From a virus, in UHGV virus genome UHGV-1544975: a DNA stretch of 31,654 nucleotides; one strand, written 5' to 3'. Shown here piece after piece: positions 120 through 26,370 of this stretch. The number at the start of each line of letters is the position of its first letter. Positions within the stretch are counted from its first letter, which is position 1. The notes beneath the pieces were generated by a model, which saw only the letters and a program-made list of their open reading frames with translations, had not been told where the DNA came from and searched no databases. The position numbers were made by a program, and so were the translations under genes.

Positions 120-140
120 GCCCGCGCTGCGGGCTTTTTT
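120..140 (+). terminator. Rho-independent terminator (GCCCGC-gct-GCGGGC then TTTTTT)
   Basis: GC stem followed by a 6-T run immediately after the stop at 119. Confidence 0.5.
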
Positions 141-374: not shown

Positions 375-396
375 AAACAAGGCCGCGAAAGCGGCC
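369..396 (-). terminator. Terminator at the end of the late operon (GGCCGC-GAAA-GCGGCC; U-tract on the minus strand)
   Basis: 6-bp GC stem with tetraloop; reverse complement is followed by TTGTTTTT; lies between convergent genes. Confidence 0.5.
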
Positions 397-5180: not shown

Positions 5181-7690
5181 TGCGGAATATCTCCGGAGAA
5201 TCTCTGACGCTTCTGTGTCAGATCAAGAACAACGGGAGAACCATCATCTTTTAGCAGATAACCAGTACCAAGTTTCACCAGGTACTGACTATCGCCGTAA
5301 CTTTGCAAACCATACTGACCAGGCGGTGTTTTTATCCCTGTGCCAACAACTTGTTCATTCCAAGCCTGATTAACCTGCTTATCGAATTGCTCTGCAGACA
5401 TTCCCCACGGCAAAAGAACATTCCCCATTCCGTTATAGTCATGCACGCCACCTGTAGCTACGTTAACAGCCTGTTTCCAGATATCATTGTCAATTTCGCC
5501 TGATACCACGCCTTTTTTCGCCATCACACCAGCGTAATAGTCCTTTGCGATCTCGTATGCCATTGATGCCCCCTGAGCATCACCAGCAAATGCATCCTTC
5601 ACCATGTCAGAAAACTCAAGGCGAAGATCAGCATCTTTAGGCATCGGAATACCTTTCGCGTCATCAGTACCTTTACGAGCCGCCGCGCCAGCAAGAATTG
5701 TCTGCGCAGCGGTTTCTGGAGACACGGAAACATCCGGATTAAACCAGTTTTTTTCTGCCAAAATACCACCTGGCTTATCCATCAGTATCCCGGCAACGGC
5801 AGCAGATGGAGCGTTGGCACTGATCTGCTGTAGTGCTGACATATACACCTGCCCACCACCAGTGCTCTGCCTGATGGTATCGAGATATGCTGCCTGTTGG
5901 GAAACGGGCGCATCACGAAAGAAAACACCGATCTGATTGGCCTCGTCTTTGGAAAAGAACGTCAGTGGAGTGCCATATGACTTAGCAAGGTCACTGACCT
6001 GAGCAGCACGCAAGGCAACGCTCTGTCCAAAGTTATCCTTATTGCTCATGTCGATAGGCTTTGCCTGTCCGGCGGCAAGAGAGAACTGTACAGGATCAGC
6101 CTGTCGCTGCTTTATCACCTGACTTGCAGCCGACACAACGTTGTCATAAAGAGCGGCTCGTGCCGCATAACCCTCCCCTGTCTCACCAGTATCCGGGCGT
6201 AATTGCTCAACATATGCTGTAATGCTGCTTGTCGGCATGTTGCGGAAAGAGCCTATATACTGTCCGGCGATTTGCGTATTTCTGAACTCGGTATATCGCA
6301 GGTTTCCTTCTCTTACTCCATAAGCTGCAATAAAATCAGCCTCACCAGGTGGGTTAGGAAATTCAACGCCACGCATATACGCAGCTGTCGCATCGCGAAC
6401 CTGGCTGTCAATCATCGTTTTATATTCAGCCTGCTGCTGCCGACGCAGTTGATCCGCCTGTCGCATAAAACTTGCCTGCGCCTCAGGAGATGCCGCATCG
6501 AATGCTGCATTACCGGTATAGCGTTTGGTGTTGGTTGGAATTGTTGATAAACCAAGTGCTGCACTGACACCAGCAGTTAACTGCTGATCACTGTATGGCT
6601 GGCTACCGTTCTCATGATGGATAATGGCTGCACAAAGCGCCTTCAGGGTATCAGGATTAGATGCATCGAGAGGCTCATCAGCAGAAACGCCAAGTTGTTC
6701 GCACACTGCTTTGATATACGACATAGTGTCATTTTTATCAGCAGGCGGTGCCCAGCGATTAATTATCTCGCTGACGGTATCAATACCCTGCCTCTGATAC
6801 GACATCAGGTTCCGCCCTAATGCACGAATCCCGTGTTCAGGTGTTTCGAATTTAGCAAATCGACCATCATCACCGGTCTGGCCTACCCACGGATTAGTTT
6901 TGCTGTATTCGAGATTTCCTGGGTTATTGTTGCGTATGCCACGGGCACGCTCGGAAGAGTCACTATCTGCTACAGCACGGCGAGCTCCAGCAGCAGTATC
7001 ACTTAACTCGCCATTACTTTGGATGAATGCGGTCGCATTGTTTGCCGACCACTGGGACAATGCAGCATCAGCAACCTTCTCTTTAAACTCGATTTTCTTG
7101 GCCTGGATTTGCTCGTTGCTCCAGCCATGTGCAACACCGTACTCCTCAATTTGCTGGAAAGTTTGCTTGTTAGCCAATACGTATGCGGCGTTGTCGCCAT
7201 ACAATGCTGCGGCATTTTTACCATTGTTCAGCAGTGTCGCCTGAAACTGGCCTTCTTCGTAGGCATTAATTTGCCCTATCTCGTGTCGCCCGGCCTGCGT
7301 AGTGAACTGAATGCGCTGCTGCTGCGCCTGCTGCATGAAAGCATTACGAGCCTGTTCATCCGGCAGCGACATAGCCAGTTGTTCGACCTGAGCATCAAAC
7401 TGCTGCGTATACTCATGGCCTTTTCCAATAGCATTTTTCCCTTTCAGGTTAAGCAATCCTGTTTCAGGATTATTCAGCAGATCGCTGCTTATCTGACTGA
7501 GGTTAAGAGATGCCTCCTGAGCCAGAGCGATATTGGCACGCTGTTTTGCCTGCCCCAAAACATCAATTGCCTCTGTCCCTGCCCGAACAAAAGCATCACC
7601 AATACCTTGCTGAGAAAACGTCTGCAAGCCTGCTGACTGAACTCCACGACTCTCAACCTGACGTCCGGATACTGTTGGTACGACTGGCAT
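5177..7690 (-). CDS. Internal virion protein (about 837 aa) with a possible cell-wall hydrolase segment
   Basis: Likely start at the internal ATG 7688..7690 (GGAGG RBS, overlaps the upstream stop) rather than track start 7765; conserved-looking segment GIRNNNPGNLEY... Confidence 0.45.
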   Translation of the reverse strand: MPVVPTVSGRQVESRGVQSAGLQTFSQQGIGDAFVRAGTEAIDVLGQAKQRANIALAQEASLNLSQISSDLLNNPETGLLNLKGKNAIGKGHEYTQQFDAQVEQLAMSLPDEQARNAFMQQAQQQRIQFTTQAGRHEIGQINAYEEGQFQATLLNNGKNAAALYGDNAAYVLANKQTFQQIEEYGVAHGWSNEQIQAKKIEFKEKVADAALSQWSANNATAFIQSNGELSDTAAGARRAVADSDSSERARGIRNNNPGNLEYSKTNPWVGQTGDDGRFAKFETPEHGIRALGRNLMSYQRQGIDTVSEIINRWAPPADKNDTMSYIKAVCEQLGVSADEPLDASNPDTLKALCAAIIHHENGSQPYSDQQLTAGVSAALGLSTIPTNTKRYTGNAAFDAASPEAQASFMRQADQLRRQQQAEYKTMIDSQVRDATAAYMRGVEFPNPPGEADFIAAYGVREGNLRYTEFRNTQIAGQYIGSFRNMPTSSITAYVEQLRPDTGETGEGYAARAALYDNVVSAASQVIKQRQADPVQFSLAAGQAKPIDMSNKDNFGQSVALRAAQVSDLAKSYGTPLTFFSKDEANQIGVFFRDAPVSQQAAYLDTIRQSTGGGQVYMSALQQISANAPSAAVAGILMDKPGGILAEKNWFNPDVSVSPETAAQTILAGAAARKGTDDAKGIPMPKDADLRLEFSDMVKDAFAGDAQGASMAYEIAKDYYAGVMAKKGVVSGEIDNDIWKQAVNVATGGVHDYNGMGNVLLPWGMSAEQFDKQVNQAWNEQVVGTGIKTPPGQYGLQSYGDSQYLVKLGTGYLLKDDGSPVVLDLTQKRQRFSGDIPQ

Positions 7691-8235: not shown

Positions 8236-8699
8236 TATTTTCTCTCCATGTGAAATCTGTGGAAATTAAGACCAAGAGCACCATAAGGCGCGGCTTCTTC
8301 AAGCCTGAATCCAAGCCAGTGCAGCCATGCTTTGGCAACATGGTTTCGCTCGTCGACGTAGTTTTCCAGGCGCGGATAAACTGCCAGCATCTGCTGCAAT
8401 ACAGGGCGGCAGTGGCGCAGAAATGTCTTCTGATATTTTTCAATACGGCTGGTTCCTACCAGCCAGGGCGTACCATTGCCACCGATCATTGACGCCGGAG
8501 ATACACCAAACATGGTCACCAGTTCTCCGTTCGCGAACCCTGACCAGGCCATAGTCGCAGTGCGAAGACCAACGCGCAGCGCATCTTCGGTAGTCATCAG
8601 CGATACCGCATACAGTTCGTCAATATCAGCCTGACGAACATCCGGCAAAATCATCTGAAGATGCTCTTCGGTAGCGGGAATAATTTGAACATCGATCAT
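8235..8699 (-). CDS. Virion-module protein (154 aa), possible GNAT-like fold; internal virion protein A position
   Basis: Segment NYVDERNHVAKAWLHWLGF resembles GNAT motif B; positional analogy to T7 gp13; translationally coupled to neighbours. Confidence 0.3.
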   Translation of the reverse strand: MIDVQIIPATEEHLQMILPDVRQADIDELYAVSLMTTEDALRVGLRTATMAWSGFANGELVTMFGVSPASMIGGNGTPWLVGTSRIEKYQKTFLRHCRPVLQQMLAVYPRLENYVDERNHVAKAWLHWLGFRLEEAAPYGALGLNFHRFHMERK

Positions 8700-11170
8700 C
8701 AGAATCCCCCAACAGTAAGGCGAGGAATAACGGCAAGAACAGACAGCGGCAACGGGTCAAGCTGACGGATTCTTACACGTCCGTTTTTGCCCCAGTTACT
8801 GTCAAGTTTCACTTCTACTTTTCCGGTAGCGTCATCAACAGGATCATCGTAGAACTCGAATTCACGCTGTTGATATTCGTACCATTTACCGCCGGGCGTA
8901 GTCGCCCAGATGCCGCGGCTGGCATTCACAACCAGAGTAACGGATGGGATCACCTGTTTTTTGTCCAGCAGCGTTTCCTGTCCGTTAATGTTGATATCCA
9001 GTGTTTCGAATTCAGCAGTTATTGGCAGGCCGATGTGCACTACAGCCCCCGGTGATTCCAGCGTGACGGCACCTCCGGAAACTACTTTCTGTGGTTCCAC
9101 GTTCGCATCAGAGAGGATGTTTACGGTCTGACCTTCAAGATGAGACAAGCCGCCAAATGCCCGGCGCGCCATCTGCCAGTTCGTGGTGGCCACATTCCTG
9201 ATGGATGGCGGGACGTTCCTGTTAGCACGAACCACTACAGCGGTGTTGCTGGTTACAGAAATAATGTCGCAACGTAATTCTTTTGACACTTCATCGCCAG
9301 TATCAGGATCAGTTCCGGTATAAGGGAACTGTAGTTGCGCACCGACATCACTACTGGTGAAGTACGCACCACCAGAAACACTGATTGTATATTCCGCGCG
9401 GTAATCCCATTCACCAGAACCACCAGTGATGGTCATCGTTCTGTCAGACGTATTTCTTCCATCATAGCTAAGGCCAGAATCAACAAAGAAAGCATCTTCA
9501 TCGCTGGTAAATAAACGGCTGGACAGTCGCTCGATGTATCTCACTGTTTGCCCGTTAACGGTTCGGTTAACGACGAAATACACCGCATCTTCATTGCCTT
9601 CGCTGATACTGCATGTGCTTTCATATTTTCCGGTACTGGACTGTGGTGCCCATGCAAAAACCTGTTGATCACGCAGATAGGTCATCACCAGTAATTTACC
9701 GTCATCACGAATGCAGAAGGCGCTGGAGTAAGGGACAATAGAGAAGCACCAGTCAACAATGCTGTGCTTCTGAAAAAGATGATTGGCAAGGATGGTCAGG
9801 TCGTTCCCCTGATAGCCGTCAACATCGAATGAGTAGGCCAGATCACGGACAACACTGCCTTTCTCCTGGACGAACAGAGCAATATTCGCCACGGCAATTG
9901 GTGGGACATTGCTCGAGCCATTTGATCCCTGAGAGCTGAATGCAAATGATGATGGGGTTAACACTTTGTTCTGGTCGCCGGTGATGACGTACTCACCTCC
10001 GGAAGTCAGTGCCACCAGCGAACCGACATCAATCAGGTGGCGGATCTCATTAACCTGACGCCCGGCATAGGTGTAGATAATTCTGTCGTCATCCTGCGTA
10101 GGATTGCTTTTGCCAAAATCCTTATAATCCCCGGTACGGCTGGCCCAGATAGTCTGAGGGAACGCAGTCGATGCGGCGAAGTAAAGGCGTTGTTGATAAT
10201 AAACAACAGTGCCAGGATAACCGTTAATACTGTTCCAGGCATATTTAGCCCATTTATAGCTGGCATTATCCTCGCCAACTACCTGCGAAGGGATATAGGA
10301 AATCACCTCGGCAGTTGCAGTAGTTCCATTTGCAGCAGAGATACGGGCAATGCCAAAACCACTGTGCAGATACTCCCACTCAATGCCGGTATCATCATCA
10401 CCGGATCCGCCCCAGCCATCCCATGATGTGCCTTCTGTATGCGAAGGGCGCAAAGTGCCTGTTTTGCCTGCTGTAACGGCGCGATAGTAGTTACTGTCTG
10501 CACGGCGAATATCGCCAATCGACGTACTCTTACTGGTTTCCCATACCGGCACAGAATCCACTGCAGGCTGTTCCAGATAGAACAATTTGCCTACCTGCTC
10601 CGCGCCAAAAATTGAGGCGCTTGCCGTTAACGTAATTGTCCCGGTGCTGGCGCTGGCATAAACCGTCACTGACTCGTCAATATTGATATCTTCAAATGGC
10701 CCGTTCTTCGTTACCACATCAACCAGTTGCCAGTTGTCATGCGCATAGCGGCGCAACTCTTTCGGCGGGTATGCCGGATGAACCAGCGTAAGCACGTCTG
10801 CGCTTTGCGTGAATTTAATTCGGAACAGATCGGCTTCAGTATATGGCGTGGCAATTTCATAAATAACATTGCTGCTGTTCAGCACCAACGCACCATCTTT
10901 GATAACGCGCATGTACTGGTGTCCGAACTCCAGAGCATAAGTCTGAACCGTCGAGAACTGGAACGGGATCAGGCGGCATTTCCGATTTGGGTATTTGGCG
11001 GCACCGACAAAACGCGTACCAGGTCGATTCTCAACGCCGCCATACTGCCGCACGATAAAGTTATCGCACTTGCGCAATGCCACCTGGTACTTCGCCATGT
11101 CGATACGACCGTACAACGACGGTCCAATCTCACCACCGGCAAAGCTGGGCTGGATCCAACTGATAGCCAT
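8699..11170 (-). CDS. Tail tubular protein B-like (nozzle), T7 gp12-like (823 aa)
   Basis: Follows the adaptor-like gene; N-terminus pattern GGEIG...NRPG resembles T7 gp12 from memory; size matches. Confidence 0.5.
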   Translation of the reverse strand: MAISWIQPSFAGGEIGPSLYGRIDMAKYQVALRKCDNFIVRQYGGVENRPGTRFVGAAKYPNRKCRLIPFQFSTVQTYALEFGHQYMRVIKDGALVLNSSNVIYEIATPYTEADLFRIKFTQSADVLTLVHPAYPPKELRRYAHDNWQLVDVVTKNGPFEDINIDESVTVYASASTGTITLTASASIFGAEQVGKLFYLEQPAVDSVPVWETSKSTSIGDIRRADSNYYRAVTAGKTGTLRPSHTEGTSWDGWGGSGDDDTGIEWEYLHSGFGIARISAANGTTATAEVISYIPSQVVGEDNASYKWAKYAWNSINGYPGTVVYYQQRLYFAASTAFPQTIWASRTGDYKDFGKSNPTQDDDRIIYTYAGRQVNEIRHLIDVGSLVALTSGGEYVITGDQNKVLTPSSFAFSSQGSNGSSNVPPIAVANIALFVQEKGSVVRDLAYSFDVDGYQGNDLTILANHLFQKHSIVDWCFSIVPYSSAFCIRDDGKLLVMTYLRDQQVFAWAPQSSTGKYESTCSISEGNEDAVYFVVNRTVNGQTVRYIERLSSRLFTSDEDAFFVDSGLSYDGRNTSDRTMTITGGSGEWDYRAEYTISVSGGAYFTSSDVGAQLQFPYTGTDPDTGDEVSKELRCDIISVTSNTAVVVRANRNVPPSIRNVATTNWQMARRAFGGLSHLEGQTVNILSDANVEPQKVVSGGAVTLESPGAVVHIGLPITAEFETLDININGQETLLDKKQVIPSVTLVVNASRGIWATTPGGKWYEYQQREFEFYDDPVDDATGKVEVKLDSNWGKNGRVRIRQLDPLPLSVLAVIPRLTVGGF

Positions 11171-11778
11171 CAGGACAACCTCGCAATGGTAAACTCGTCA
11201 ACCGGTGGCTGTGGTTCCTGTGATTCATTCTGGCTATGCGAGCCAGCACTAAGAATCACGCGATTGTACATATTGAGGGCAAACGTACCGAGGTCTGCAT
11301 TCCCAGTCAGCGCCATGTTAATAGCTGCCGCAAGACGCCAGGCCAACGCCTCCATAAAAATGGCATCAAACATGTTCACATCTGAAACGCGAGAGACATA
11401 CTTGAGCCATGCCTGCGGCTGGTCTGTGTAGATCAACTTTCCTGTTCCGTTGGTGTCTGCACCAACTTCGTACTGAACGCGCATTGCTGCTGTTGGATTG
11501 CGTACACCAGGAAGCATAATTTCAGTAATGCGCAGACAATCGGACGGGTACTGGTACGCATATTCCCAGTCAGGCGGTGGATTGCTCGTATCTGCAAGCG
11601 CCACGCGTTTGGTAGCAAAGTTCCAGTCAAAATCAGAAAGAACAGCATCACGGCAGGCCTCAAAGTGCAGCGAACATTCACCCGCTTCCTTGCTGGCTTC
11701 CGTCAGGCTGTTAATACTGCGGCTGTTGCCAATATTGGACAGCGCACGATTACAGATCTCTACTACAGAGGCCATCAC
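11170..11778 (-). CDS. Tail tubular protein A-like (adaptor), T7 gp11-like (202 aa)
   Basis: N-terminal CNRALSNIGNSRSINSLTE resembles T7 gp11 VNDILASIGEPPVSTLEG from memory; size and position fit. Confidence 0.5.
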   Translation of the reverse strand: MMASVVEICNRALSNIGNSRSINSLTEASKEAGECSLHFEACRDAVLSDFDWNFATKRVALADTSNPPPDWEYAYQYPSDCLRITEIMLPGVRNPTAAMRVQYEVGADTNGTGKLIYTDQPQAWLKYVSRVSDVNMFDAIFMEALAWRLAAAINMALTGNADLGTFALNMYNRVILSAGSHSQNESQEPQPPVDEFTIARLS

Positions 11779-12098
11779 TCACCTCCGTTACCGTACAGAG
11801 TTTCAGCCGCTGATTTTTCTACATCCCTGGAAACAGGAGCGATCGCCATATCAGTGATCTGCAGATCGGCGCTGCGATTAACACCATCGTCAGTTTCTCT
11901 GGCAGACAGGCCTCGAATAACAGCCTTTGCAGTTATCATCACTTCTGTTCCGACGCCCTGAGGTTGCGCCTTCAGCTTATTCAATGTGTCGTTATTAAGA
12001 GTGATGCACAGCCCCCACGGGTATTCATCGCGAGTTCTGGTTTCTCCGCTCTCATCCTGGTAGCTGTCAGTGCCGGTTTTGAGGTTTACGAGTTCCAT
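11775..12098 (-). CDS. Hypothetical virion morphogenesis protein (about 107 aa)
   Basis: Track ORF 11775..12104 begins with GTG; ATG at 12096..12098 has a GGAG RBS. Confidence 0.45.
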   Translation of the reverse strand: MELVNLKTGTDSYQDESGETRTRDEYPWGLCITLNNDTLNKLKAQPQGVGTEVMITAKAVIRGLSARETDDGVNRSADLQITDMAIAPVSRDVEKSAAETLYGNGGE

Positions 12099-12110
12099 AT
12101 ACACTCCTGC

Positions 12111-12130
12111 AATAAAGGGGCCGAAGCCCC
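12111..12130 (-). terminator. Intra-operon terminator/attenuator between head and tail genes (GGGGC-UUCG-GCCCC then UUUAUU)
   Basis: On the minus strand: 5-bp GC stem, UUCG tetraloop, then TTTATT, immediately before the next RBS. Confidence 0.45.
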
Positions 12131-12148
12131 TTGTCGGATTCGCGAGGC

Positions 12149-12493
12149 TTACACGCCCAGTTCTTTACGCTTATCTGCGATCTTCTCGCGGAGCGTTTCG
12201 GCTTTAGCGTTATGGTGTGGCTTCTCGTTAAAGAGCAATTCGTACTCTTCACGGAGCTTATCCAGTTCACCATCATCTGACACATCGTTGATGATTTTGG
12301 TGCTGGTTGCTGCCATAGACACCTTTCCTGCTACCTTTGCTTTTGCCTGTCTGGCTGCATCGTTAACAGGTTCCAGTGCGCTACCAGGCTCACCTTCGTA
12401 TTCGATTTCTTCCCCCTCCGGCCACAGTGTGTTATGGATATGAGAGAGGCGCAGAACGCGGTATCTTGGTTTCTCACCTGACATCGATATCAC
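12149..12493 (-). CDS. Hypothetical head-proximal protein (114 aa)
   Basis: ORF in the late operon, charged C-terminal helix; no family recognised. Confidence 0.4.
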   Translation of the reverse strand: MISMSGEKPRYRVLRLSHIHNTLWPEGEEIEYEGEPGSALEPVNDAARQAKAKVAGKVSMAATSTKIINDVSDDGELDKLREEYELLFNEKPHHNAKAETLREKIADKRKELGV

Positions 12494-12494
12494 C

Positions 12495-12932
12495 TTAACC
12501 AGTTACTTTTGAGCGGATCGGGTACGGCGTATTGGCATCAACATCCAGACTGATACCCGCAGTGAATTTGCCGGCCGTTAGTGGGCCAGTTGCGACGGAG
12601 TAGTTAACACGCAGATATCGCTGAACACCGGCAGGCACCTTTGCAGAAACAACTCGTTTACCTGCTGTCAGGGTAGCCTTTGCCAGTGCGCCACTATCAT
12701 AAATAGTGGACCATGAGCTGTTATTCTCACTCGTCTGCAACTGGATGTTTACAGTTGCCTCACCACTTGCCGTGGCGGCTTCGTTAACCAGCACCCAAAA
12801 CTCAAGCGGATAACCCACGCCGATATCGCGACGGTTTCCATCAATTGGACCGAGATCGATTACGTCAGTAGAAGCCGCGGTATTCGTAACCGCCTGAGCT
12901 TCGGAGAACATCAACAGTTTGTCGGTGATCAT
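12495..12932 (-). CDS. Hypothetical protein (145 aa), possible capsid decoration or accessory protein
   Basis: Immediately downstream of the capsid gene, GGAG RBS; composition suggests beta-rich protein. Confidence 0.4.
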   Translation of the reverse strand: MITDKLLMFSEAQAVTNTAASTDVIDLGPIDGNRRDIGVGYPLEFWVLVNEAATASGEATVNIQLQTSENNSSWSTIYDSGALAKATLTAGKRVVSAKVPAGVQRYLRVNYSVATGPLTAGKFTAGISLDVDANTPYPIRSKVTG

Positions 12933-12947
12933 CTTCTTTCTCCATTA

Positions 12948-12967
12948 GTGGGTCTGTTACGACCCAC
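12948..12967 (-). other. Stable stem-loop just after the capsid gene (GTGGGTC-N6-GACCCAC), no U-tract
   Basis: 7-bp perfect stem read directly; between the capsid stop (12984) and the next start (12932). Confidence 0.4.
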
Positions 12968-12983
12968 AGGTTAATAACAGGCG

Positions 12984-13976
12984 TTACACCACGCGGGCTT
13001 CTGTTTCCAGAAGCGCATCAGTTTCACGGATTGGTACACCACGGAATGAAGTCCACCACTCGCCTTCAGTCTCTTTTACGCTGATCGCCAGAGATGTTTT
13101 CTCCAGAGATTGCAGATCAAGAGCCTGGCCTACAGTGCGGTTCATGTAGAACACCGGGCGACCCATTCCACGGTTTGGAATGCGATGCAGTGCTTTAACC
13201 ATCAACTTCGCAATATTTGCGGCAGAGGAAGGTTCTGAAAGATTGCTGACATCGATGTTTGCAATGCGAACAACATAACGCCAGTCACGCAGAGCAAGTC
13301 CGTTGTCCCATTTGTAATGGGTGCGATAGCCTTCGTACTTGCCGCCATTAGCATCTTCCAGTGTCACCTGGCCTTTATCTTCCATCTGGATGCCAGCCTT
13401 CTGCCCTTTCGGGAAGATGCCATGCACGGTGTTTTCGCCCCACACCACTAACCAGATTGAGGTGTTATCTGTACCCGTGCCACCAGCATCAATGATGTTC
13501 TGAGCATTACCCGCAGACAGGCTGGAATAGCGGGAGGACAGTCCCATAAACTGCTGAGGGTTAACGCTGGAATCACCATAAAACAGCGTCTGCGCCATCT
13601 GCTGATTCATCGCTTCAATAAATGCGCGGTCTTCAGACAGGCGGAATTCAGCGGTATTGCCGTTCAGATCAGCCAGTGATTTATCGACTTCAGCATAGGT
13701 TTCCAGCATGCCAACGTAATCGGTTACCTGCACTGTGGTTGATTTGCTTGGCTGTACGCCATAGTTCAGCAAACGCCAGGTAGCTGAAGGTAAACCAGAA
13801 CGAATGGTGGTTCGGTGTCCGGTAGGAAGGTTCCCTTCGACAAAAGGCATATCCTGAAGGATCGGGTTAGTTTGACCGAGAAGCTCGATAATCTTATCGA
13901 CTTTCCCGTTTGGATCGACGCGCTTACCCCAGTCAGCCAGCGTTAGCGCAGTTAAGCCTTTAACAGCCATTGTCAT
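12984..13976 (-). CDS. Major capsid protein (330 aa)
   Basis: Position after portal and scaffold; size typical of podovirus capsid proteins; followed by a stem-loop. Confidence 0.7.
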   Translation of the reverse strand: MTMAVKGLTALTLADWGKRVDPNGKVDKIIELLGQTNPILQDMPFVEGNLPTGHRTTIRSGLPSATWRLLNYGVQPSKSTTVQVTDYVGMLETYAEVDKSLADLNGNTAEFRLSEDRAFIEAMNQQMAQTLFYGDSSVNPQQFMGLSSRYSSLSAGNAQNIIDAGGTGTDNTSIWLVVWGENTVHGIFPKGQKAGIQMEDKGQVTLEDANGGKYEGYRTHYKWDNGLALRDWRYVVRIANIDVSNLSEPSSAANIAKLMVKALHRIPNRGMGRPVFYMNRTVGQALDLQSLEKTSLAISVKETEGEWWTSFRGVPIRETDALLETEARVV

Positions 13977-14686: not shown

Positions 14687-14979
14687 TCCTGTTCACTGGC
14701 CTCTTTGGCCATCTTCAAATACTGTTCAGGGCAATGCGCCATAACGCGCTGAAACAGTTCCAGCGCCAGATTGCGTTGCCCCTCATTAAATGCCATTGCC
14801 ATAGCGTCCATCGGTGAGATAGCGGAAAACACACGGCCTTTCTCCAGCACCGACCAGACAACGCGACGCCCCTGTTCACTGCTCATGACAAAGCGAATGT
14901 CATCAATTTCACGCTGCGCCATGTCACGTTGCTTACGGGCGTTTTCTTCTTTCAGTTGATCGTCTTCGTAATCTGTCAT
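14683..14979 (-). CDS. Hypothetical head-assembly-region protein (98 aa)
   Basis: 4-nt overlaps with both portal and scaffold genes. Confidence 0.45.
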   Translation of the reverse strand: MTDYEDDQLKEENARKQRDMAQREIDDIRFVMSSEQGRRVVWSVLEKGRVFSAISPMDAMAMAFNEGQRNLALELFQRVMAHCPEQYLKMAKEASEQE

Positions 14980-16655
14980 TGTGATTGCCCACCCTGACCA
15001 CTAACTGCATTCGCCATAGCTGACAAAACACTCGGATCCGAAGTTTTAGCTTCGCTTAGCGTCTTGGCCCCCTGTGCCGCCGCCATCCCCATCGCCATCA
15101 TTTGTTGCTGCTGTTGTTGCTGTGCCCGTTGCTGGCGAGCCTGCTCAACCTGTTCCTGCGGAACAATGACGGTTGGAGACACTCCGGACATATCAGCGAA
15201 TGCATCGATCGCCTGATCAACGTTGAGTTTGTCGAGAGCTTCTGGTTTCGCTTGCGCAAGTTGACCAATGAAGTTGACCGTAGACGCCAGACTGGACAGG
15301 CCGATAGACTTCTGCGCCTGAGCCATGACGGAAATGTATTCGACCTTCAGGGGCATACCTTCCATCGCGTCAGGCGGTGGCGGCAGCATGTTTTTACGCA
15401 CCATCATCGAGAAAGCGCGGTCAATGAGAGGATTAAGACATTCGTCGTTCAGACGCTCCAGAACCGGCCCCAACATCAGAAGTTTTTCTTCTTTCATTTC
15501 GATCACTGCTTCAACAGGCATCGAGCGGGTATTGATGTTCTGCAACATCATGAACAGATCGACAAAGTAGGCGCTGTTAATGATTTGACGAGTGTCCTGA
15601 ATGTCTGCTACCAGATCTGCTGTACTGGGGTTAACCAGATAAGCAGGCCTGAAGCCATCCTGACCAGTAATCTGATCGATATACGTGATGTCACCAGGAA
15701 GAAGGGAGGCGCGCTGATTCTTGAGGGAAGTCGGAGCAACCATCGGCGGATTGGTGGCTTTATCAATCAACTGCGACTTGCGCTCCTGGAGAAGTTGCAA
15801 TGCCTTAACAGGTCCAAGCGCCAGCATACCCGGGCATGATGATCCATAAACATCTTCGCCATTAACTTCCCAGCGCGGAGCCATAATTGGAAACTCATCA
15901 AATCCGGACTCACGCAACAACTTGTCGTTATCGCCACCAACCTCGTAATAAACCGATTTGAATGGCTTGTTCTTGCTATCCAGCTTCGATGTATCGCGGT
16001 CAATGTTCGGGTAAACCGAATGCATCACTTCAATCCACTTCTCGTAGGTGCCGCTTTCCCACATGCTTTTTACGGATTCGCTGACGTTATTTAGTCCGAA
16101 CTCCTGAACAAGCTGACGAACAGTCATAGAGAACTTGCGAAAACAGGTGTCCACACTGCCACGAGGTGAGTTAGCCAGGTAGTAACTTCCTATCGGGAAT
16201 GGCATTGTACGAATGATGTCCTCGTCATCCTCCAGCACCGCCATTGCGCCAGTGCTGTATGTGCCGAGGCTTCCGTATAACTGCGGCAGCGACTGATAGA
16301 GATTCGACTTATTGAACATATCGTTCATGCGGTTCTGCACCGCCTCAAGCCACAACTTAACAGGGCCATAATCCATCATTTCAGGATCTGGCGTAGCCAG
16401 GCGAAACCACGGACGCGCGGGGCTTGTGATGCATGACATCATGCCGCTGGCGAGAGTGCGCGCCGCCATAGTCCCGGTCGAATCAATAATGCGTGTATTG
16501 CGTCGATCGTTACGGTTGACCTCAGAAGTCAGAAAGCGGGAACCACGCGGGTTGATGTAATCACTCAACTCGCGCCAGTGCGGCTCGAACGACTGACGCT
16601 CGCTTTCAAGTTGTGCGAACTGTTTGTTCCATCGCTCTTTAGTTGTTTCCGCCAT
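14976..16655 (-). CDS. Portal protein (559 aa)
   Basis: Size, position after terminase and before scaffold, Gln/Ala-rich flexible C-terminus. Confidence 0.7.
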   Translation of the reverse strand: MAETTKERWNKQFAQLESERQSFEPHWRELSDYINPRGSRFLTSEVNRNDRRNTRIIDSTGTMAARTLASGMMSCITSPARPWFRLATPDPEMMDYGPVKLWLEAVQNRMNDMFNKSNLYQSLPQLYGSLGTYSTGAMAVLEDDEDIIRTMPFPIGSYYLANSPRGSVDTCFRKFSMTVRQLVQEFGLNNVSESVKSMWESGTYEKWIEVMHSVYPNIDRDTSKLDSKNKPFKSVYYEVGGDNDKLLRESGFDEFPIMAPRWEVNGEDVYGSSCPGMLALGPVKALQLLQERKSQLIDKATNPPMVAPTSLKNQRASLLPGDITYIDQITGQDGFRPAYLVNPSTADLVADIQDTRQIINSAYFVDLFMMLQNINTRSMPVEAVIEMKEEKLLMLGPVLERLNDECLNPLIDRAFSMMVRKNMLPPPPDAMEGMPLKVEYISVMAQAQKSIGLSSLASTVNFIGQLAQAKPEALDKLNVDQAIDAFADMSGVSPTVIVPQEQVEQARQQRAQQQQQQQMMAMGMAAAQGAKTLSEAKTSDPSVLSAMANAVSGQGGQSQ

Positions 16656-16876: not shown

Positions 16877-16965
16877 ATCAATGACTCCGTACGCAATTAA
16901 ATTATTACCAATTTAACCACATATGATTTATTTATCGTAGACAGTTGACATTTAATGCACGAATT

Positions 16966-16982
16966 ATTACCTTTCAGGTAAG
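16966..16982. promoter_or_regulatory. Operator-like palindrome ATTACC-TTTCA-GGTAAG upstream of the portal operon
   Basis: One of about nine copies of the ATTACC-N5-GGTAA motif. Confidence 0.45.
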
Positions 16983-17303
16983 TAAATGGTTCATTCCGGT
17001 TATTAACCTGACTGGCTTGTCGTTAAATTGAACAGGTGGAGTGAGCTTTTATTTTGAGCAGTACGGCGTATGGCACATGCGCCGATAGCGGTCTGGATAC
17101 GTTTAAGGGGCACCCTCCCTTGCTCGGGCAAACGAACCAGGTAGCCGGAATGTGCAAGTCGAGCGGTTTTATTCCGCGCACGGGGATTCACCATCCCGGC
17201 GATTCGGTGTGACGCCTCGGAAGAGACGAGGGTACAACGATGAGAGCATTTATGGAGCCGCGACAAAGTGTGGCGCCTTAACAGGCTAAGTGCTCTCAGC
17301 GTT

Positions 17304-17380
17304 GTGGCATTAGCTCAGTTGGACAGAGCAACCGCCTTCTAAGCGGTTGGTCGCAGGTTCGAATCCTGCATGCCACGCCA
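17304..17380 (+). tRNA. tRNA-Arg (anticodon UCU), 77 nt including 3' CCA
   Basis: Folded by hand: perfect 7-bp acceptor stem GTGGCAT/ATGCCAC, D-stem GCTC/GAGC, anticodon stem ACCGC/GCGGT, loop CTTCTAA, T-arm GCAGG-TTCGAAT-CCTGC, discriminator G, CCA. Confidence 0.9.
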
Positions 17381-17423
17381 GAATCACGCCTAAGGACCGT
17401 GATGCCAGAAGTTCCAGGTGCTT

Positions 17424-17465
17424 GGCGGTGATGGTTTCCCTTGAAGGACTATCACCGCCCTTTTT
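17424..17465 (+). terminator. Rho-independent terminator after the tRNA (GGCGGTGAT...ATCACCGCC then CTTTTT)
   Basis: 9-bp stem plus T-run. Confidence 0.6.
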
Positions 17466-17543
17466 ACAGCAGGACGCCATTGCGATGACTTCATGCTGTA
17501 AACCAGTACAGCCACGGAAGGCATAACTCATTGCTTCCAGTTC

Positions 17544-17567
17544 GCCCGGTTCGCCGGGCATTTTTTT
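17544..17567 (+). terminator. Second terminator-like hairpin (GCCCGG-UUCG-CCGGGC then 7 T) directly upstream of the DUF2829-like gene RBS
   Basis: 6-bp GC stem, UUCG tetraloop, 7-T tract; RBS AAGGTGAG follows immediately. Confidence 0.6.
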
Positions 17568-17578
17568 AAGGTGAGATT

Positions 17579-17875
17579 ATGAGCGAAACATCAACAGTAT
17601 CTTTCTCCACTGCTTTGTCATCACTCAAAGATGGTAAGCGCATTGCACGTGCCGGATGGAATGGCAAAGGCATGTATCTGCAACTGGTTAAGCCACCGCA
17701 ATCGGCCACTCCGAACGAGTGGCGATTTGACGTTACATGCGGTGACGAGTATACATTTGTACCTGGCGTTAAACTTCTACCGTGGATTGGGATGAAAACT
17801 GCTGACGGTTGCTTTGTACCGTGGCTGGCATCTCAAACCGATCTGCTATCTGATGACTGGATTGTAATTCAATAA
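17579..17875 (+). CDS. DUF2829-like small protein (98 aa), candidate Tad2-like anti-Thoeris protein
   Basis: Strong RBS; motifs ARAGWNGKGMYL and PWLASQTDLLSDDW match my recollection of DUF2829; opposite strand to flanking late genes. Confidence 0.5.
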   Translation: MSETSTVSFSTALSSLKDGKRIARAGWNGKGMYLQLVKPPQSATPNEWRFDVTCGDEYTFVPGVKLLPWIGMKTADGCFVPWLASQTDLLSDDWIVIQ

Positions 17876-17879
17876 CACC

Positions 17880-17891
17880 GTGACATGTCAC
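17880..17891. repeat. 12-bp perfect palindrome GTGACATGTCAC, copy 2 of 3
   Basis: Exact match; between the DUF2829-like gene and the large terminase 3' end. Confidence 0.8.
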
Positions 17892-17895
17892 AAAC

Positions 17896-17922
17896 AGCCA
17901 GCCTATGAGCTGGCTTTGTTTT
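17896..17922. terminator. Terminator hairpin (AGCCAGC-N6-GCTGGCT then TTTGTTTT) at a convergent gene junction
   Basis: 7-bp stem with T-rich tail on the plus strand. Confidence 0.5.
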
Positions 17923-17965
17923 ATCCTCACCAGAGGATATCAACGACATTATCCCCACCAGCGGA

Positions 17966-19441
17966 TTAAGCATAGGGATCGTAATCTGTAATGGCCTTGC
18001 CTTGCTGGTTCTGCTGACCTGGAATTCGCAGACGCTTCGACACAGGGAAAGCAAACGTCAGCAATAGCGCATCGCCTTTACCAGGAGAACGCCCAAGCCG
18101 CTCCTTGATATCTTCCTTCGGTTCGATAACGATTTTACCGTCCACTCGAACTTTGTACTCTGCCGCCGACAGGTCGTCCGCTGTTTCCTGGTCATCAAGC
18201 ATGCCGCCCAGCCTCAGCCATGTCTTGCATGAGTTGAACATCTCCCCGCGCTTATTGAGCATCTGCGGGTCAGTAGACGCGCCACCGAACGGAACAAGTT
18301 GCCATGTACGACCCCAGCCATCACCGATTGACTTCAGACCAGTTCCGTAACCGAAGTCGATGAACACTGCGTCAGCCTGGTACTGGTCTTCAAAGTCAGC
18401 GATACGCTTCGCCATAATCAGATCGTCAGTGGTCTTGTTGCCGGTCCACAGCACCTTACTGTGCAGCCCCTGCCGCAGATATATCACCGCGTCATCAACA
18501 CCGGAGTATGCCGGGTCAACGCCGATTATCACCGGAGCATGTGCAACCTGCGCAGCGGTGACCACCCGTTTCATTGCCTCGTCAGTAAGTCCGGTAGGGA
18601 TAAACTGCAATTCAGATGCATCCGGGAATATGCCGCGCACACGGATTTTAACGAAGTCGCTATCTTCCCCGTAGTCATCAACCCATTTCTGCAACTGCTG
18701 TTTGTTAGTGCCTTCCACCGTCCGGCTGTCAATCTGCGCAGTTTTCCAGCGGTGTTTGTATTTGCGGAAACATTCGCGAAAACGCCCGGTATTACGTGTA
18801 GGGTTTCCGAACGCCACCCAGATAATCTCAGTGTCTTCGTCCGTAAGCGCACCCTCAGCAACTTCCCACACCAGATCCGCAATGTTCGACGCTTCATCGA
18901 ATACCACGATGATGCGTTTGCGCTCGTTGTGTAGTCCGGCGAATGCCTCAGTGTTGTGCTCAGACCAGGGGATTGCGTCAGCTCGCCACCGCTTGTCGTG
19001 CCCAGGATCATTGCTGTACATCGCAGTAGCGGTACAGGTAAACCAGTCTTTCGTGATAGCAAGGTTCGACCACTTGATAATTTCCGGCCAGGTCTTCGTT
19101 CGTAGCTGGTTGTCGGTGTTGGCGGTCACCACGACCTTACAATCCTCGCAAGTGGACATGCCCCAGTTGATCAGCATTGAGATGAATGCGGATTTACCAA
19201 TACCGTGACCCGAAGCACGTGCCAGCATAAGCGGCTGATAGCGCGTCTCTGGATTCTGCAGGTGATCACGTATCTCTCGGAACGCATCAGCCTGCCACTG
19301 ACGTGGGCCGGTAGCATGTGCCAGTTCAGTCCCCTCTTCCCCCCACGGGAACGCATAGAGGGCATAGCCAAGCGGATCGTGAGTGAACCCTGCAATATCC
19401 TCGATCAACTGCTCTTCAGGAGATAACGCTGTATCTGTCAC
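17966..19441 (-). CDS. Terminase large subunit (491 aa)
   Basis: Walker A-like GHGIGKS, Walker B-like IIVVFDEAS, acidic C-terminal nuclease-like region; overlaps the small-subunit stop. Confidence 0.9.
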   Translation of the reverse strand: MTDTALSPEEQLIEDIAGFTHDPLGYALYAFPWGEEGTELAHATGPRQWQADAFREIRDHLQNPETRYQPLMLARASGHGIGKSAFISMLINWGMSTCEDCKVVVTANTDNQLRTKTWPEIIKWSNLAITKDWFTCTATAMYSNDPGHDKRWRADAIPWSEHNTEAFAGLHNERKRIIVVFDEASNIADLVWEVAEGALTDEDTEIIWVAFGNPTRNTGRFRECFRKYKHRWKTAQIDSRTVEGTNKQQLQKWVDDYGEDSDFVKIRVRGIFPDASELQFIPTGLTDEAMKRVVTAAQVAHAPVIIGVDPAYSGVDDAVIYLRQGLHSKVLWTGNKTTDDLIMAKRIADFEDQYQADAVFIDFGYGTGLKSIGDGWGRTWQLVPFGGASTDPQMLNKRGEMFNSCKTWLRLGGMLDDQETADDLSAAEYKVRVDGKIVIEPKEDIKERLGRSPGKGDALLLTFAFPVSKRLRIPGQQNQQGKAITDYDPYA

Positions 19442-20034: not shown

Positions 20035-20050
20035 AACCACCGTGGTAATA

Positions 20051-20067
20051 GTTACCGTTGTGGTAAT
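20051..20067. promoter_or_regulatory. Operator-like palindrome (minus-strand reading ATTACC-ACAAC-GGTAAC) with an extra GGTAAT half-site, just upstream of the terminase gene
   Basis: Motif copy read directly; lies inside the spurious N-terminal extension of the track ORF. Confidence 0.45.
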
Positions 20068-20069
20068 AG

Positions 20070-20103
20070 TACCATACAAAATAAAGCCGCCATAGTTGGC
20101 GGC
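20070..20103 (-). terminator. Rho-independent terminator (GCCGCCA-N4-TGGCGGC then UUUAUUUUGUAU on the minus strand) separating accessory genes from the terminase operon
   Basis: 7-bp perfect stem, T-rich tail on the minus strand. Confidence 0.55.
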
Positions 20104-20144
20104 AGTATTCAAAACCCATCAAATTCATCATGCATAATCTACTC

Positions 20145-20156
20145 GTGACATGTCAC
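20145..20156. repeat. 12-bp perfect palindrome GTGACATGTCAC, copy 3 of 3
   Basis: Exact match; overlaps the stop codon of 20153..20494 in the same register as copy 1. Confidence 0.8.
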
Positions 20157-20494
20157 ACTATTAATTTCGTTTCATGCCAGCCTTTAGTCACCCAGCATTG
20201 CGAGTCACCATTACACGGGCATGAATTAACTGGAACTCTCTCGCCGCACTTACCGCAACATTTTCTGCTGATCGATTTTATACGCCCGCGCACGCGTGCA
20301 TCATCCTGGCGGATCAGTAACGCTATATACTCACCAAATTCGTAAGGCGCACGCCCGGGGCGACGCGTGGCACAGTTACGCTCCAGCATTTCAATTTCCT
20401 GAGCATCCAGCACAATCTCCAGCTTACGTACACCGGATGCAGCTTGTCTGGCTCTCTGAGCGGCTTTGCGCTCTGCTGCTGATTTAGCCATCAA
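20153..20494 (-). CDS. Cys-rich small protein (113 aa), possible zinc-binding regulator
   Basis: Basic N-terminus; C-terminal cysteine cluster CCGKCGERVPVNSCPCNGDSQCW; sits where lambdoid phages carry Q. Confidence 0.4.
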   Translation of the reverse strand: MMAKSAAERKAAQRARQAASGVRKLEIVLDAQEIEMLERNCATRRPGRAPYEFGEYIALLIRQDDARVRGRIKSISRKCCGKCGERVPVNSCPCNGDSQCWVTKGWHETKLIV

Positions 20495-25298: not shown

Positions 25299-25353
25299 GG
25301 ATAGATATGAAAAGACCGCCGGGTGGCGGTCTACAGAGGGTTGTAGCTGGATA

Positions 25354-26345: not shown

Positions 26346-26370
26346 GCCGCCTCATGGCGGCTTTTTTATT
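26346..26370 (+). terminator. Rho-independent terminator after the repressor-like gene (GCCGCC-TCAT-GGCGGC then TTTTTT)
   Basis: 6-bp GC stem plus 6-T run. Confidence 0.65.

Follow-up and report, generated by a model that had tools for sequence, protein, structure and literature searches.

A candidate leaky intrinsic terminator and a covarying post-capsid stem-loop in the late operon of a phiV10/epsilon15-like phage

In phage T7, the hairpin terminator T-phi is located in the late structural region, between the capsid gene, which it directly follows, and the tail tubular genes, and acts on the single-subunit RNA polymerase of the phage. Read-through of post-capsid terminators of the T7 type supplies the tail genes and leads to differential dosage, as also reported for LUZ100 and other Autographiviridae (PMC10134795, PMC9163698), and inefficient terminators with stepwise extension of transcripts are common in phages according to long-read transcriptomics (PMC9163698, PMC10134795). 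Closer in genome organization are epsilon15 and BPP-1. The GenBank/RefSeq record of epsilon15 (NC_004775.2) annotates a ‘rho-independent terminator’ stem_loop on both strands (7664..7686, plus; 7647..7681, minus) of the gap between gp9 and gp10, and the phiV10 and Tyrion records are without a terminator annotation in this gap. In BPP-1, a hairpin with a U-tract, unannotated in its record, lies between bbp15 and bbp14, after the capsid gene, the cement-protein gene and a small ORF, and directly before a tail tubular A-like gene. A literature search found no late-transcript, 3'-end or transcript-abundance data for Uetakevirus (epsilon15, phiV10, SPC32H).

Here, two hairpins are described in the late operon of the UHGV virus genome UHGV-1544975, of which the whole stretch of 31,654 nt analysed is referred to as the window. 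In the 1.4 kb around the hairpins, identity is 97-99% to Escherichia phage phiV10 and its relatives and 81.5% to Enterobacter phage Tyrion, all members of the genus Uetakevirus. The window is a Uetakevirus phage or prophage of the phiV10/epsilon15 kind, its late genes being encoded by the minus strand. The genes and elements around the hairpins are as follows, in the direction of transcription:

14976..16655, minus strand: portal gene (ORF table and profile matches)
Between the portal and protease/scaffold genes, minus strand: Bbp19-like gene, 98 aa
13985..14686, minus strand: protease/scaffold gene
12984..13976, minus strand: major capsid protein gene, 330 aa (phrog_212, E 1.7e-112)
12948..12967, minus strand: stem-loop 2 (GUGGGUC at 12967..12961, loop GUAACA at 12960..12955, GACCCAC at 12954..12948)
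12495..12932, minus strand: gp8-like gene, 145 aa, homologue of the BPP-1 cementing protein Bbp16
12149..12484, minus strand: gp9-like gene, 111 aa (phrog_590), the last gene before hairpin 1
12117..12130, minus strand: hairpin 1 (GGGGC at 12130..12126, loop UUCG at 12125..12122, GCCCC at 12121..12117)
12111..12116, minus strand: U-tract UUUAUU, immediately 3' of hairpin 1
12108..12104 and 12098..12096, minus strand: Shine-Dalgarno sequence AGGAG, preceded by GC, and ATG of the gp10-like gene
11775..12098, minus strand: gp10-like gene, 107 aa, the first gene after hairpin 1
11170..11778, minus strand: gp11-like tail gene (T7 tubular protein A-like, or adaptor; phrog_394, phrog_9239)
8699..11170, minus strand: gp12-like large tail gene, 823 aa (phrog_376)

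The homologue of the capsid gene is named ‘major head protein’ in the phiV10 and Tyrion records, and a note in the epsilon15 record describes gp11 as ‘HHpred 3j4b_A Tail tubular protein A’. The start codon of the gp9-like gene was chosen in accordance with the Tyrion and phiV10 annotations, and its product had no match in Pfam, NCBIfam or the PDB. Internal virion and ejection protein genes follow the gp12-like gene, down to position ~898 (ORF table and epsilon15 gene order). Throughout this ~16-kb portal-to-tail operon, genes overlap (the gp11-like start with the gp10-like stop, for example) or are spaced by at most ~15 nt. From the portal gene to the last of the ejection-protein genes there are only two longer gaps, one of 51 nt following the capsid gene and one of 50 nt following the gp9-like gene (ORF table). 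These two gaps are the sites of stem-loop 2 (capsid/gp8) and hairpin 1 (gp9/gp10), respectively.

Hairpin 1 is a cUUCGg tetraloop hairpin of five G-C pairs, extendable to 7 bp (AAGGGGC/GCCCCUU), located between genes on the coding (minus) strand, in the orientation of the transcription unit. It ends 8 nt before the AGGAG, leaving no room for a promoter between it and the gp10-like gene. Its folding energy is -12.7 kcal/mol with the A-U extension (range -9.6 to -12.7; z = -3.5; 1/200 shuffles as stable), and its d'Aubenton-Carafa-type score is d = +7.4 (threshold 0), where d values are approximate, the formula following d'Aubenton-Carafa et al. 1990 but being combined with modern energy parameters. 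Chance would provide 0.175 sites per strand with d >= 7.4 (40 dinucleotide shuffles). In its stem and loop, U-tract, score, orientation and intergenic position, hairpin 1 thus has the properties of an intrinsic terminator. Five minus-strand sites have d > 0, of which hairpin 1 is the weakest, and the sole one inside the portal-to-tail operon. Its U-tract (T-weight 3.20) is short and interrupted, and weak to moderate termination is expected from it. Hairpin 1 was not listed by a consensus terminator scan, whose hits overall were not enriched (24 found versus 18 expected), because the stem was extended through two Ts and too few were left in the tail. A bidirectional terminator was considered for the phiV10-type hairpin and rejected, the plus-strand tail being TTGTCGG and no plus-strand site with d > 0 being present there.

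The original prediction gave coordinates and sequences for both hairpins that proved exact on checking against the sequence, and described hairpin 1 as a terminator-like element of the late operon that comes after the head genes and immediately precedes a ribosome-binding site (RBS), a description which its score and the conservation of both hairpin and U-tract bear out. The further claim that hairpin 1 separates capsid-proximal genes from tail genes needs correction: the gene immediately after it is the gp10-like gene (PF21628), with the tail genes coming thereafter.

Conservation of hairpin 1 was followed over two ranges of divergence. Over the 60 nt preceding the gp10 start codon, 80 near-identical IMG/VR loci fall into eight haplotypes, with all variable sites located 5' of the stem, except for a loop change seen in one locus; no variation occurs in the stem, the U-tract or the RBS. 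These relatives, being 98-100% identical at gp10, show where variation falls but are not usable for covariation. The comparison set comprised Klebsiella, Enterobacter, Salmonella, Scandinavium, Kluyvera, Pseudocitrobacter, Superficieibacter, Ca. Erwinia dacicola, Cronobacter and Dickeya phages or prophages and one Logan metagenome assembly, with identities of 61-88% for gp10 and down to 50% for gp9. Across the phiV10-clade lineages the 14-nt core of hairpin 1 is invariant despite the divergence of gp9, which at 50-82% identity is far more divergent than the flanking capsid and gp10 genes. Below the core, the sixth pair changes from A-U to G-C in the Superficieibacter, Cronobacter and Logan sequences and to G.U in Erwinia; the tract after the stem stays T-rich with a variable fourth base (TTTATT, TTTCTT, TTTTTT, TTCTT); and the AGGAG and ATG of the gp10-like gene are invariant in the alignment.

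Outside the phiV10 clade, the same position is occupied by other hairpins. The clade of epsilon15, SPN1S and Citrobacter has GCCGGGGCC-AUUC-GGCCCCGC followed by UUUUCUAU (d = 16), an E. albertii prophage has AGGGCC-GCAA-GGCCCU followed by UUUCUUUUU (d = 27), and BPP-1, at the equivalent position, has CGGGGGC-UUCGU-GCCCCCG followed by CUUUUUCUU (d = 8). A hairpin with a U-tract therefore fills the gp9/gp10 gap in almost every relative examined, in the form of four unrelated hairpin sequences, and d > 0 in 16/18 lineage types, the exceptions being a borderline Dickeya site (d = -4.5) and a Herminiimonas prophage whose hairpin lacks a U-tract. Nothing argues more strongly for selection on a termination signal, as opposed to one particular sequence, than the retention of a U-tract by unrelated hairpins.

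Hairpin 1 is not new, as the orthologous terminator is already annotated in epsilon15, in the same gap, between the same flanking genes and in the same orientation. In both, a GC hairpin with a 4-nt loop is followed by a U-tract close to the gp10 RBS, on its upstream side, and both are predictions only; the hairpin sequences differ (GCCGGGGCC-AUUC-GGCCCCGC versus GGGGC-UUCG-GCCCC), and the epsilon15 version is stronger (d = 16 versus 7) and has an upstream A-tract, hence its annotation as bidirectional.

The original prediction also likened hairpin 1 to T-phi as a device that raises capsid mRNA relative to tail mRNA. The likeness stands as a functional analogy, each being a hairpin terminator of the late structural region that lies between the capsid gene and the tail tubular genes, but it does not extend to the polymerase or to the exact position. 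The complete epsilon15 genome has no annotated phage RNA polymerase, and no ORF in the window matched the polymerase families searched, so host RNA polymerase must be the target of hairpin 1, unlike T-phi. Moreover, T-phi directly follows the capsid gene, whereas hairpin 1 follows the capsid, cement-protein and gp9 genes, with two genes between the capsid gene and the hairpin, and the gp10-like gene intervenes between it and the tail tubular A-like gene. The two have no sequence relationship. Assignment of hairpin 1 to the T-phi type was rejected, given its host polymerase and its distance from the capsid gene, although the functional logic is similar. BPP-1 shares the two-element architecture of a U-tract-less post-capsid hairpin and a later terminator-like hairpin; it differs in having a GC-rich host and in its gp10-like gene, bbp20, which adjoins the portal gene, so that the terminator falls exactly at the head/tail junction. 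The conserved order is capsid gene, cement-protein gene, small ORF, terminator and tail genes, with the Uetakeviruses inserting the gp10-like gene after the terminator.

Stem-loop 2 begins 16 nt past the capsid stop codon (12986..12984), and 4 nt lie between its end and the GGAG of the following gene. It had been predicted as a 7-bp stem-loop without a U-tract past the capsid stop, which is confirmed here, with covariation in addition. The structure is stable (-13.6 kcal/mol; z = -5.0; 0/200 shuffles as stable), and its tail, UAAUGGAGAAAG, has a T-weight of 1.19, giving d = -35. Post-capsid hairpins have d < 0 in 14/14 lineages, and none has a U-tract, so that stem-loop 2 is not a canonical terminator. 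At least four versions of the stem occur (GUGGGUC/GACCCAC, AUGGGCC/GGCCCAU, AGCGGCCCG/CGGGCUGCU and GGCGGGC/GCCCGCC), with varying loops (GUAACA, UUAACC, the GNRA-type GUAA, GUGA and GCGA, UGCU, UGCGU). In an alignment of 16 distinct sequences, including three mismatch singletons, with N-padded loops and the register set by hand, 5/7 pairs change on both sides, and 97.3% of cells pair (shuffles, 77%; slid controls, 27-47%). Covariation scores 0.619, compared with 0.251 +/- 0.042 in shuffles (0/500 reach 0.619) and 0.04-0.09 with the partner columns slid. RNAalifold agrees on a subset of the sequences, and eight G.U cells in the alignment are valid on the mRNA strand only. Judged by this alignment, stem-loop 2 is a conserved structured RNA element whose pairing is kept by compensatory substitutions.

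A U-tract-less hairpin also follows the capsid genes of BPP-1, BcepC6B and the Herminiimonas prophage, and the capsid/gp8 gap is wholly lost in the epsilon15 clade and in the E. albertii lineage. Rfam 15 had no match in 11900..13100 at E <= 1, and across the whole window at the gathering threshold a tRNA was the sole hit; stem-loop 2 is thus a small RNA structure with good support but no entry in Rfam. RNase III processing sites consist of roughly 20 bp of double-stranded RNA, and an RNase III site was rejected for stem-loop 2, the 7-9 bp stem being too short in every lineage. Strong termination between the capsid and gp8-like genes would be counter-productive, as the equivalent proteins of BPP-1 are both shell components. 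Stem-loop 2 is probably an mRNA-level element rather than a terminator, its most likely role being to shield the capsid part of the transcript against 3'-to-5' decay or to serve as a processing mark. Intercistronic hairpins that stabilize segments of polycistronic mRNAs include the REP elements of malEFG and the hairpins of the puf operon; stem-loop 2 is likewise stable, intergenic, U-tract-less and downstream of the most-required gene, but differs from them in having a stem of only 7-9 bp and no Rfam match.

The position of the gp10-like gene after hairpin 1 bears on the function of its product. The gp10-like protein has a sequence match to PDB 3J40 chain N (gp10; E 2e-22), belongs to Pfam PF21628, a family named ‘capsid staple protein’ by NCBI, and gave an AF2 model with no structural match. 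A staple equimolar with the capsid protein would make a preceding attenuation counter-productive; however, this assignment is disputed by Hryc and Baker, who found that an AlphaFold2 model of the 111-aa epsilon15 gp10 misfits the staple density, and that a 130-aa protein fits it (PMC9207676). From its CDS length, the 130-aa protein would be epsilon15 gp8. The gp8-like protein of the window matches PDB 3j4u_H (E 2e-29) and 8cjz_B, as well as Pfam PF21190 (Bbp16), a note in the epsilon15 record links gp8 to the BPP-1 cementing protein, and the gp8-like protein is probably the real capsid decoration protein. In BPP-1, BcepC6B and CP2 the gp10-like gene is found at other locations. Its placement in the window, past the candidate attenuator and overlapping the tail adaptor gene, provides indirect genomic support for the published suggestion that gp8, and not gp10, is the staple.

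The other terminator-class sites, and the regulator gene next to the late leader, are as follows:

20153..20494: gene for a Cys-rich, zinc-finger-like regulator, 112 aa, adjoining the late leader
20086..20103, minus strand: terminator-class hairpin in the late leader, between the regulator gene (112 aa) and terS, d = 24.4
381..396, minus strand: terminator-class hairpin past the last co-directional ORFs, a candidate operon end, d = 17.0
25331..25314, minus strand: site with d > 0 after a cro-like gene
134..120, minus strand: bidirectional site with d > 0

All four hairpin sites are intergenic, placed where transcription units end or past that point. The site at 20086..20103, the strongest minus-strand terminator in the window, has its counterpart in the epsilon15 terminator at 39646..39672, after the gp49 regulator gene, and the 396..381 site corresponds to the epsilon15 terminator after gp18. 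The region before terS contains a weak promoter-like site with a -35 region that overlaps a perfect palindrome (GTGACATGTCAC); the 20086..20103 terminator lies ~20 nt downstream of this site, and two direct repeats just precede the terS start codon. The operator motif GGTAACTATTACCAC is found only upstream of terS and is therefore uninformative about the promoter of the portal operon. The 112-aa regulator has a basic N-terminus and an invariant CxxC...CPC...C motif; it had no match in Pfam, NCBIfam or the PDB, and its AF2 model is poor (pLDDT 56). Profile searches detected no antiterminator family of the Q or N type. The portal operon has an apparent AT-rich control region of its own (16900..17000); between this region and the terminase genes lies an opposite-strand island with a tRNA-Arg gene. 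The polymerase that reaches hairpin 1 may start at this control region. If the 112-aa regulator is an antiterminator, hairpin 1 might be bypassed in lytic growth and act mainly at the RNA level.

Taken together, the evidence favours, with a confidence somewhat above even, hairpin 1 being an intrinsic terminator for host polymerase that serves as a leaky attenuator in the portal-to-tail late operon, and stem-loop 2 being a separate, non-terminator mRNA hairpin, most likely a decay barrier or processing mark. Some host polymerases would release at UUUAUU after the cUUCGg hairpin, giving abundant transcripts that end after the portal, protease/scaffold, capsid, cement-protein and gp9 genes, and the remaining polymerases would read through into the gp10-like, tail adaptor, nozzle and ejection-protein genes, whose products are expected, by analogy, to be needed in far fewer copies. 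Termination would have to be partial or relieved, as the genes that follow include essential ones and the next RBS begins only 8 nt past the hairpin. The anatomy, the better-than-chance score, the conservation and the covariation are observed; termination at hairpin 1, its efficiency and the mRNA-stability role of stem-loop 2 we infer. A U-tract that is almost always present at the hairpin 1 position (16/18 lineage types score as terminators) and never at the stem-loop 2 position favours real termination. Several points count against this reading. A stem of 5-7 bp and a short, interrupted U-tract might terminate with very low efficiency; the U-rich tract might owe its conservation to translation, as an A/U-rich enhancer preceding the Shine-Dalgarno sequence; and the invariance of the 14-nt core exceeds the structural requirement. 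The late region also begins with a promoter-like site and a strong terminator beside the gene for the zinc-finger-like regulator and, if late transcription were antiterminated, hairpin 1 would be read through in lytic growth.

Antitermination of this kind would suit an alternative in which both hairpins are mainly RNA-decay barriers or processing landmarks: polymerase would read through hairpin 1, which would protect the upstream head-gene mRNA from 3'-to-5' exonucleases after endonucleolytic cleavage, and dosage would be set by segmental mRNA stability. The arrangement of the leader (promoter-like site, strong terminator, terS and unclassified regulator) is compatible with it, and the conserved U-tract-less hairpins (stem-loop 2 and those of BPP-1, BcepC6B and Herminiimonas) point to hairpins being selected for a role other than termination. 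The cUUCGg loop, moreover, is exceptionally stable, as reportedly described by Tuerk et al. in 1988. By contrast, the U-tract survives at least four independent replacements of the hairpin at the hairpin 1 position and never appears at that of stem-loop 2, an asymmetry predicted by termination but not by a pure decay barrier, and no antiterminator family of the Q or N type was detected; this alternative is considered unlikely, though not negligible.

The proximity of both hairpins to ribosome-binding sites (8 nt before AGGAG for hairpin 1, 4 nt before GGAG for stem-loop 2) leads to another alternative, in which hairpin 1 belongs to the signals for translation initiation of the gp10-like gene, either insulating the RBS from structure farther upstream, with the U-rich tract as an enhancer for ribosomal protein S1, or taking part in a weak anti-Shine-Dalgarno pairing. 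A GCCUC after the gp9 stop codon and the AGGAG are both invariant, and RNAalifold pairs CUC with GAG, but this outer helix has just 3 invariant bp and no covariation, and the 56-nt region folds no better than shuffles (z = -0.7). RBS proximity is itself unconserved, as the post-capsid hairpins of BPP-1 and BcepC6B lie 17-28 nt from the RBS, and the epsilon15 and E. albertii hairpins are without the GCCUC context, making a translational role on this model improbable. The sequence invariance of the core, which goes beyond conservation of structure, could also reflect a recombination linker at a module boundary, or hitch-hiking, with no regulatory role. Such an origin would accord with the divergence of gp9 (50-82% identity) relative to its capsid and gp10 neighbours, and with the presence of the gp10-like gene elsewhere in BPP-1, BcepC6B and CP2, which makes the gap a rearrangement junction. 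It is nonetheless highly improbable in view of the unrelated U-tract hairpins at the same position in the epsilon15, E. albertii and BPP-1 lineages, the compensatory change at the sixth pair, and the variation among the 80 close relatives, which avoids the stem, U-tract and RBS.

A bolder proposal, which we regard as quite doubtful, is that the post-capsid stem-loop and its counterparts in BPP-1, BcepC6B and Herminiimonas constitute an undescribed covarying cis-regulatory motif of the epsilon15/BPP-1 podophage supergroup, forming part of a two-step dosage device. If so, stem-loop 2 would set the capsid-to-cement ratio through segmental mRNA stability or a bound factor, hairpin 1 would set the head-to-tail ratio by attenuation, and the gp10-like protein would be a low-copy virion component and not a capsid staple. 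Tuning head-to-tail dosage with a leaky terminator is a textbook strategy of phages, and the findings have little consequence for general biology. For the phages concerned, they provide a conserved, testable regulatory map of the late operons of Uetakevirus and BPP-1-type phages, and in the engineering of phiV10 reporter phages, insertions beside the hairpin gaps would alter the expression of downstream genes.

The portal-to-tail late operon, which holds both the proposed leaky terminator between gp9 and gp10 and the stem-loop after the capsid gene, is separated from the terminase genes by an island of opposite-strand features, into which late transcripts starting at terS would run:
16900..17966, opposite-strand island between terL and the gp3/portal operon
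17304..17380, plus strand, tRNA-Arg(TCT) inside the island
17579..17875, plus strand, 98-aa ORF inside the island
17424..17459, 17544..17559 and 17897..17914, plus strand, three terminator-like hairpins inside the island

This arrangement suggests that the portal operon has a promoter of its own. An AT-rich stretch just 5' of the gp3 start (16899..16972, minus strand) contains two copies of GGTAATAATT, a repeat that could serve as operator or activator site of the portal-to-tail operon; in epsilon15, IHF, repressor and RNase III sites are annotated in the equivalent region.

Further candidate control elements lie before terS and in the early region, where hairpins with d > 0 (a d'Aubenton-Carafa-type score) are terminator-class:
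20040..20160, minus strand, late leader
20153..20494, minus strand, 112-aa regulator (phrog_536)
25314..25331, minus strand, terminator-class hairpin directly 3' of the cro-like gene (d = 16)
26346..26361, plus strand, terminator-class hairpin directly 3' of the cI-like repressor gene (d = 44)

In the late leader, a promoter-like site shares bases of its -35 region with the perfect palindrome GTGACATGTCAC. A strong terminator (20103..20086, minus strand, d = 24) comes after this site, and the direct repeats GGTACTATTACCAC and GGTAACTATTACCAC (20074..20042, minus strand) directly precede the terS start. The epsilon15 record carries an annotated repressor site at the equivalent position, and the arrangement of the leader is reminiscent of lambda pR'-tR'.

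Within the portal operon, GCCUC directly 3' of the gp9 stop (within 12141..12148, minus strand) is invariant in most phiV10-clade lineages, with Dickeya as the exception, while the remainder of the spacer is variable. RNAalifold proposes a pairing between the CUC of this motif and the GAG of the gp10 Shine-Dalgarno sequence, through just three base pairs, all invariant. The distant betaproteobacterial relative L096, a Herminiimonas contaminans prophage locus (60% identity in the capsid protein, 33% in gp10), has a hairpin at each of the two equivalent positions (2235..2300 and 2935..3000 in its own coordinates), both lacking a U-tract.

For the gp10-like 'capsid staple' protein (11775..12098, minus strand), the AF2 model (pLDDT 74) consists of one long beta-hairpin, and a structural comparison with the PDB gave no match; its 145-aa neighbour (12495..12932, minus strand) is clearly homologous to the BPP-1 cementing protein. 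Both observations agree with the published suggestion that the epsilon15 staple is gp8, not gp10 (PMC9207676), and the Pfam family PF21628 and the NCBI 'capsid staple' name may therefore be mislabelled.

The N-terminus of the 112-aa regulator is basic, and its cysteines form an invariant motif (C79xxC82...C91PC93...C99) that looks like a zinc finger; the protein has no family match in Pfam, NCBIfam or PDB, and AF2 models it poorly (pLDDT 56). It could act as a late activator or antiterminator. A terminator immediately 3' of the cro-like gene would require read-through or antitermination in the early operon as well.
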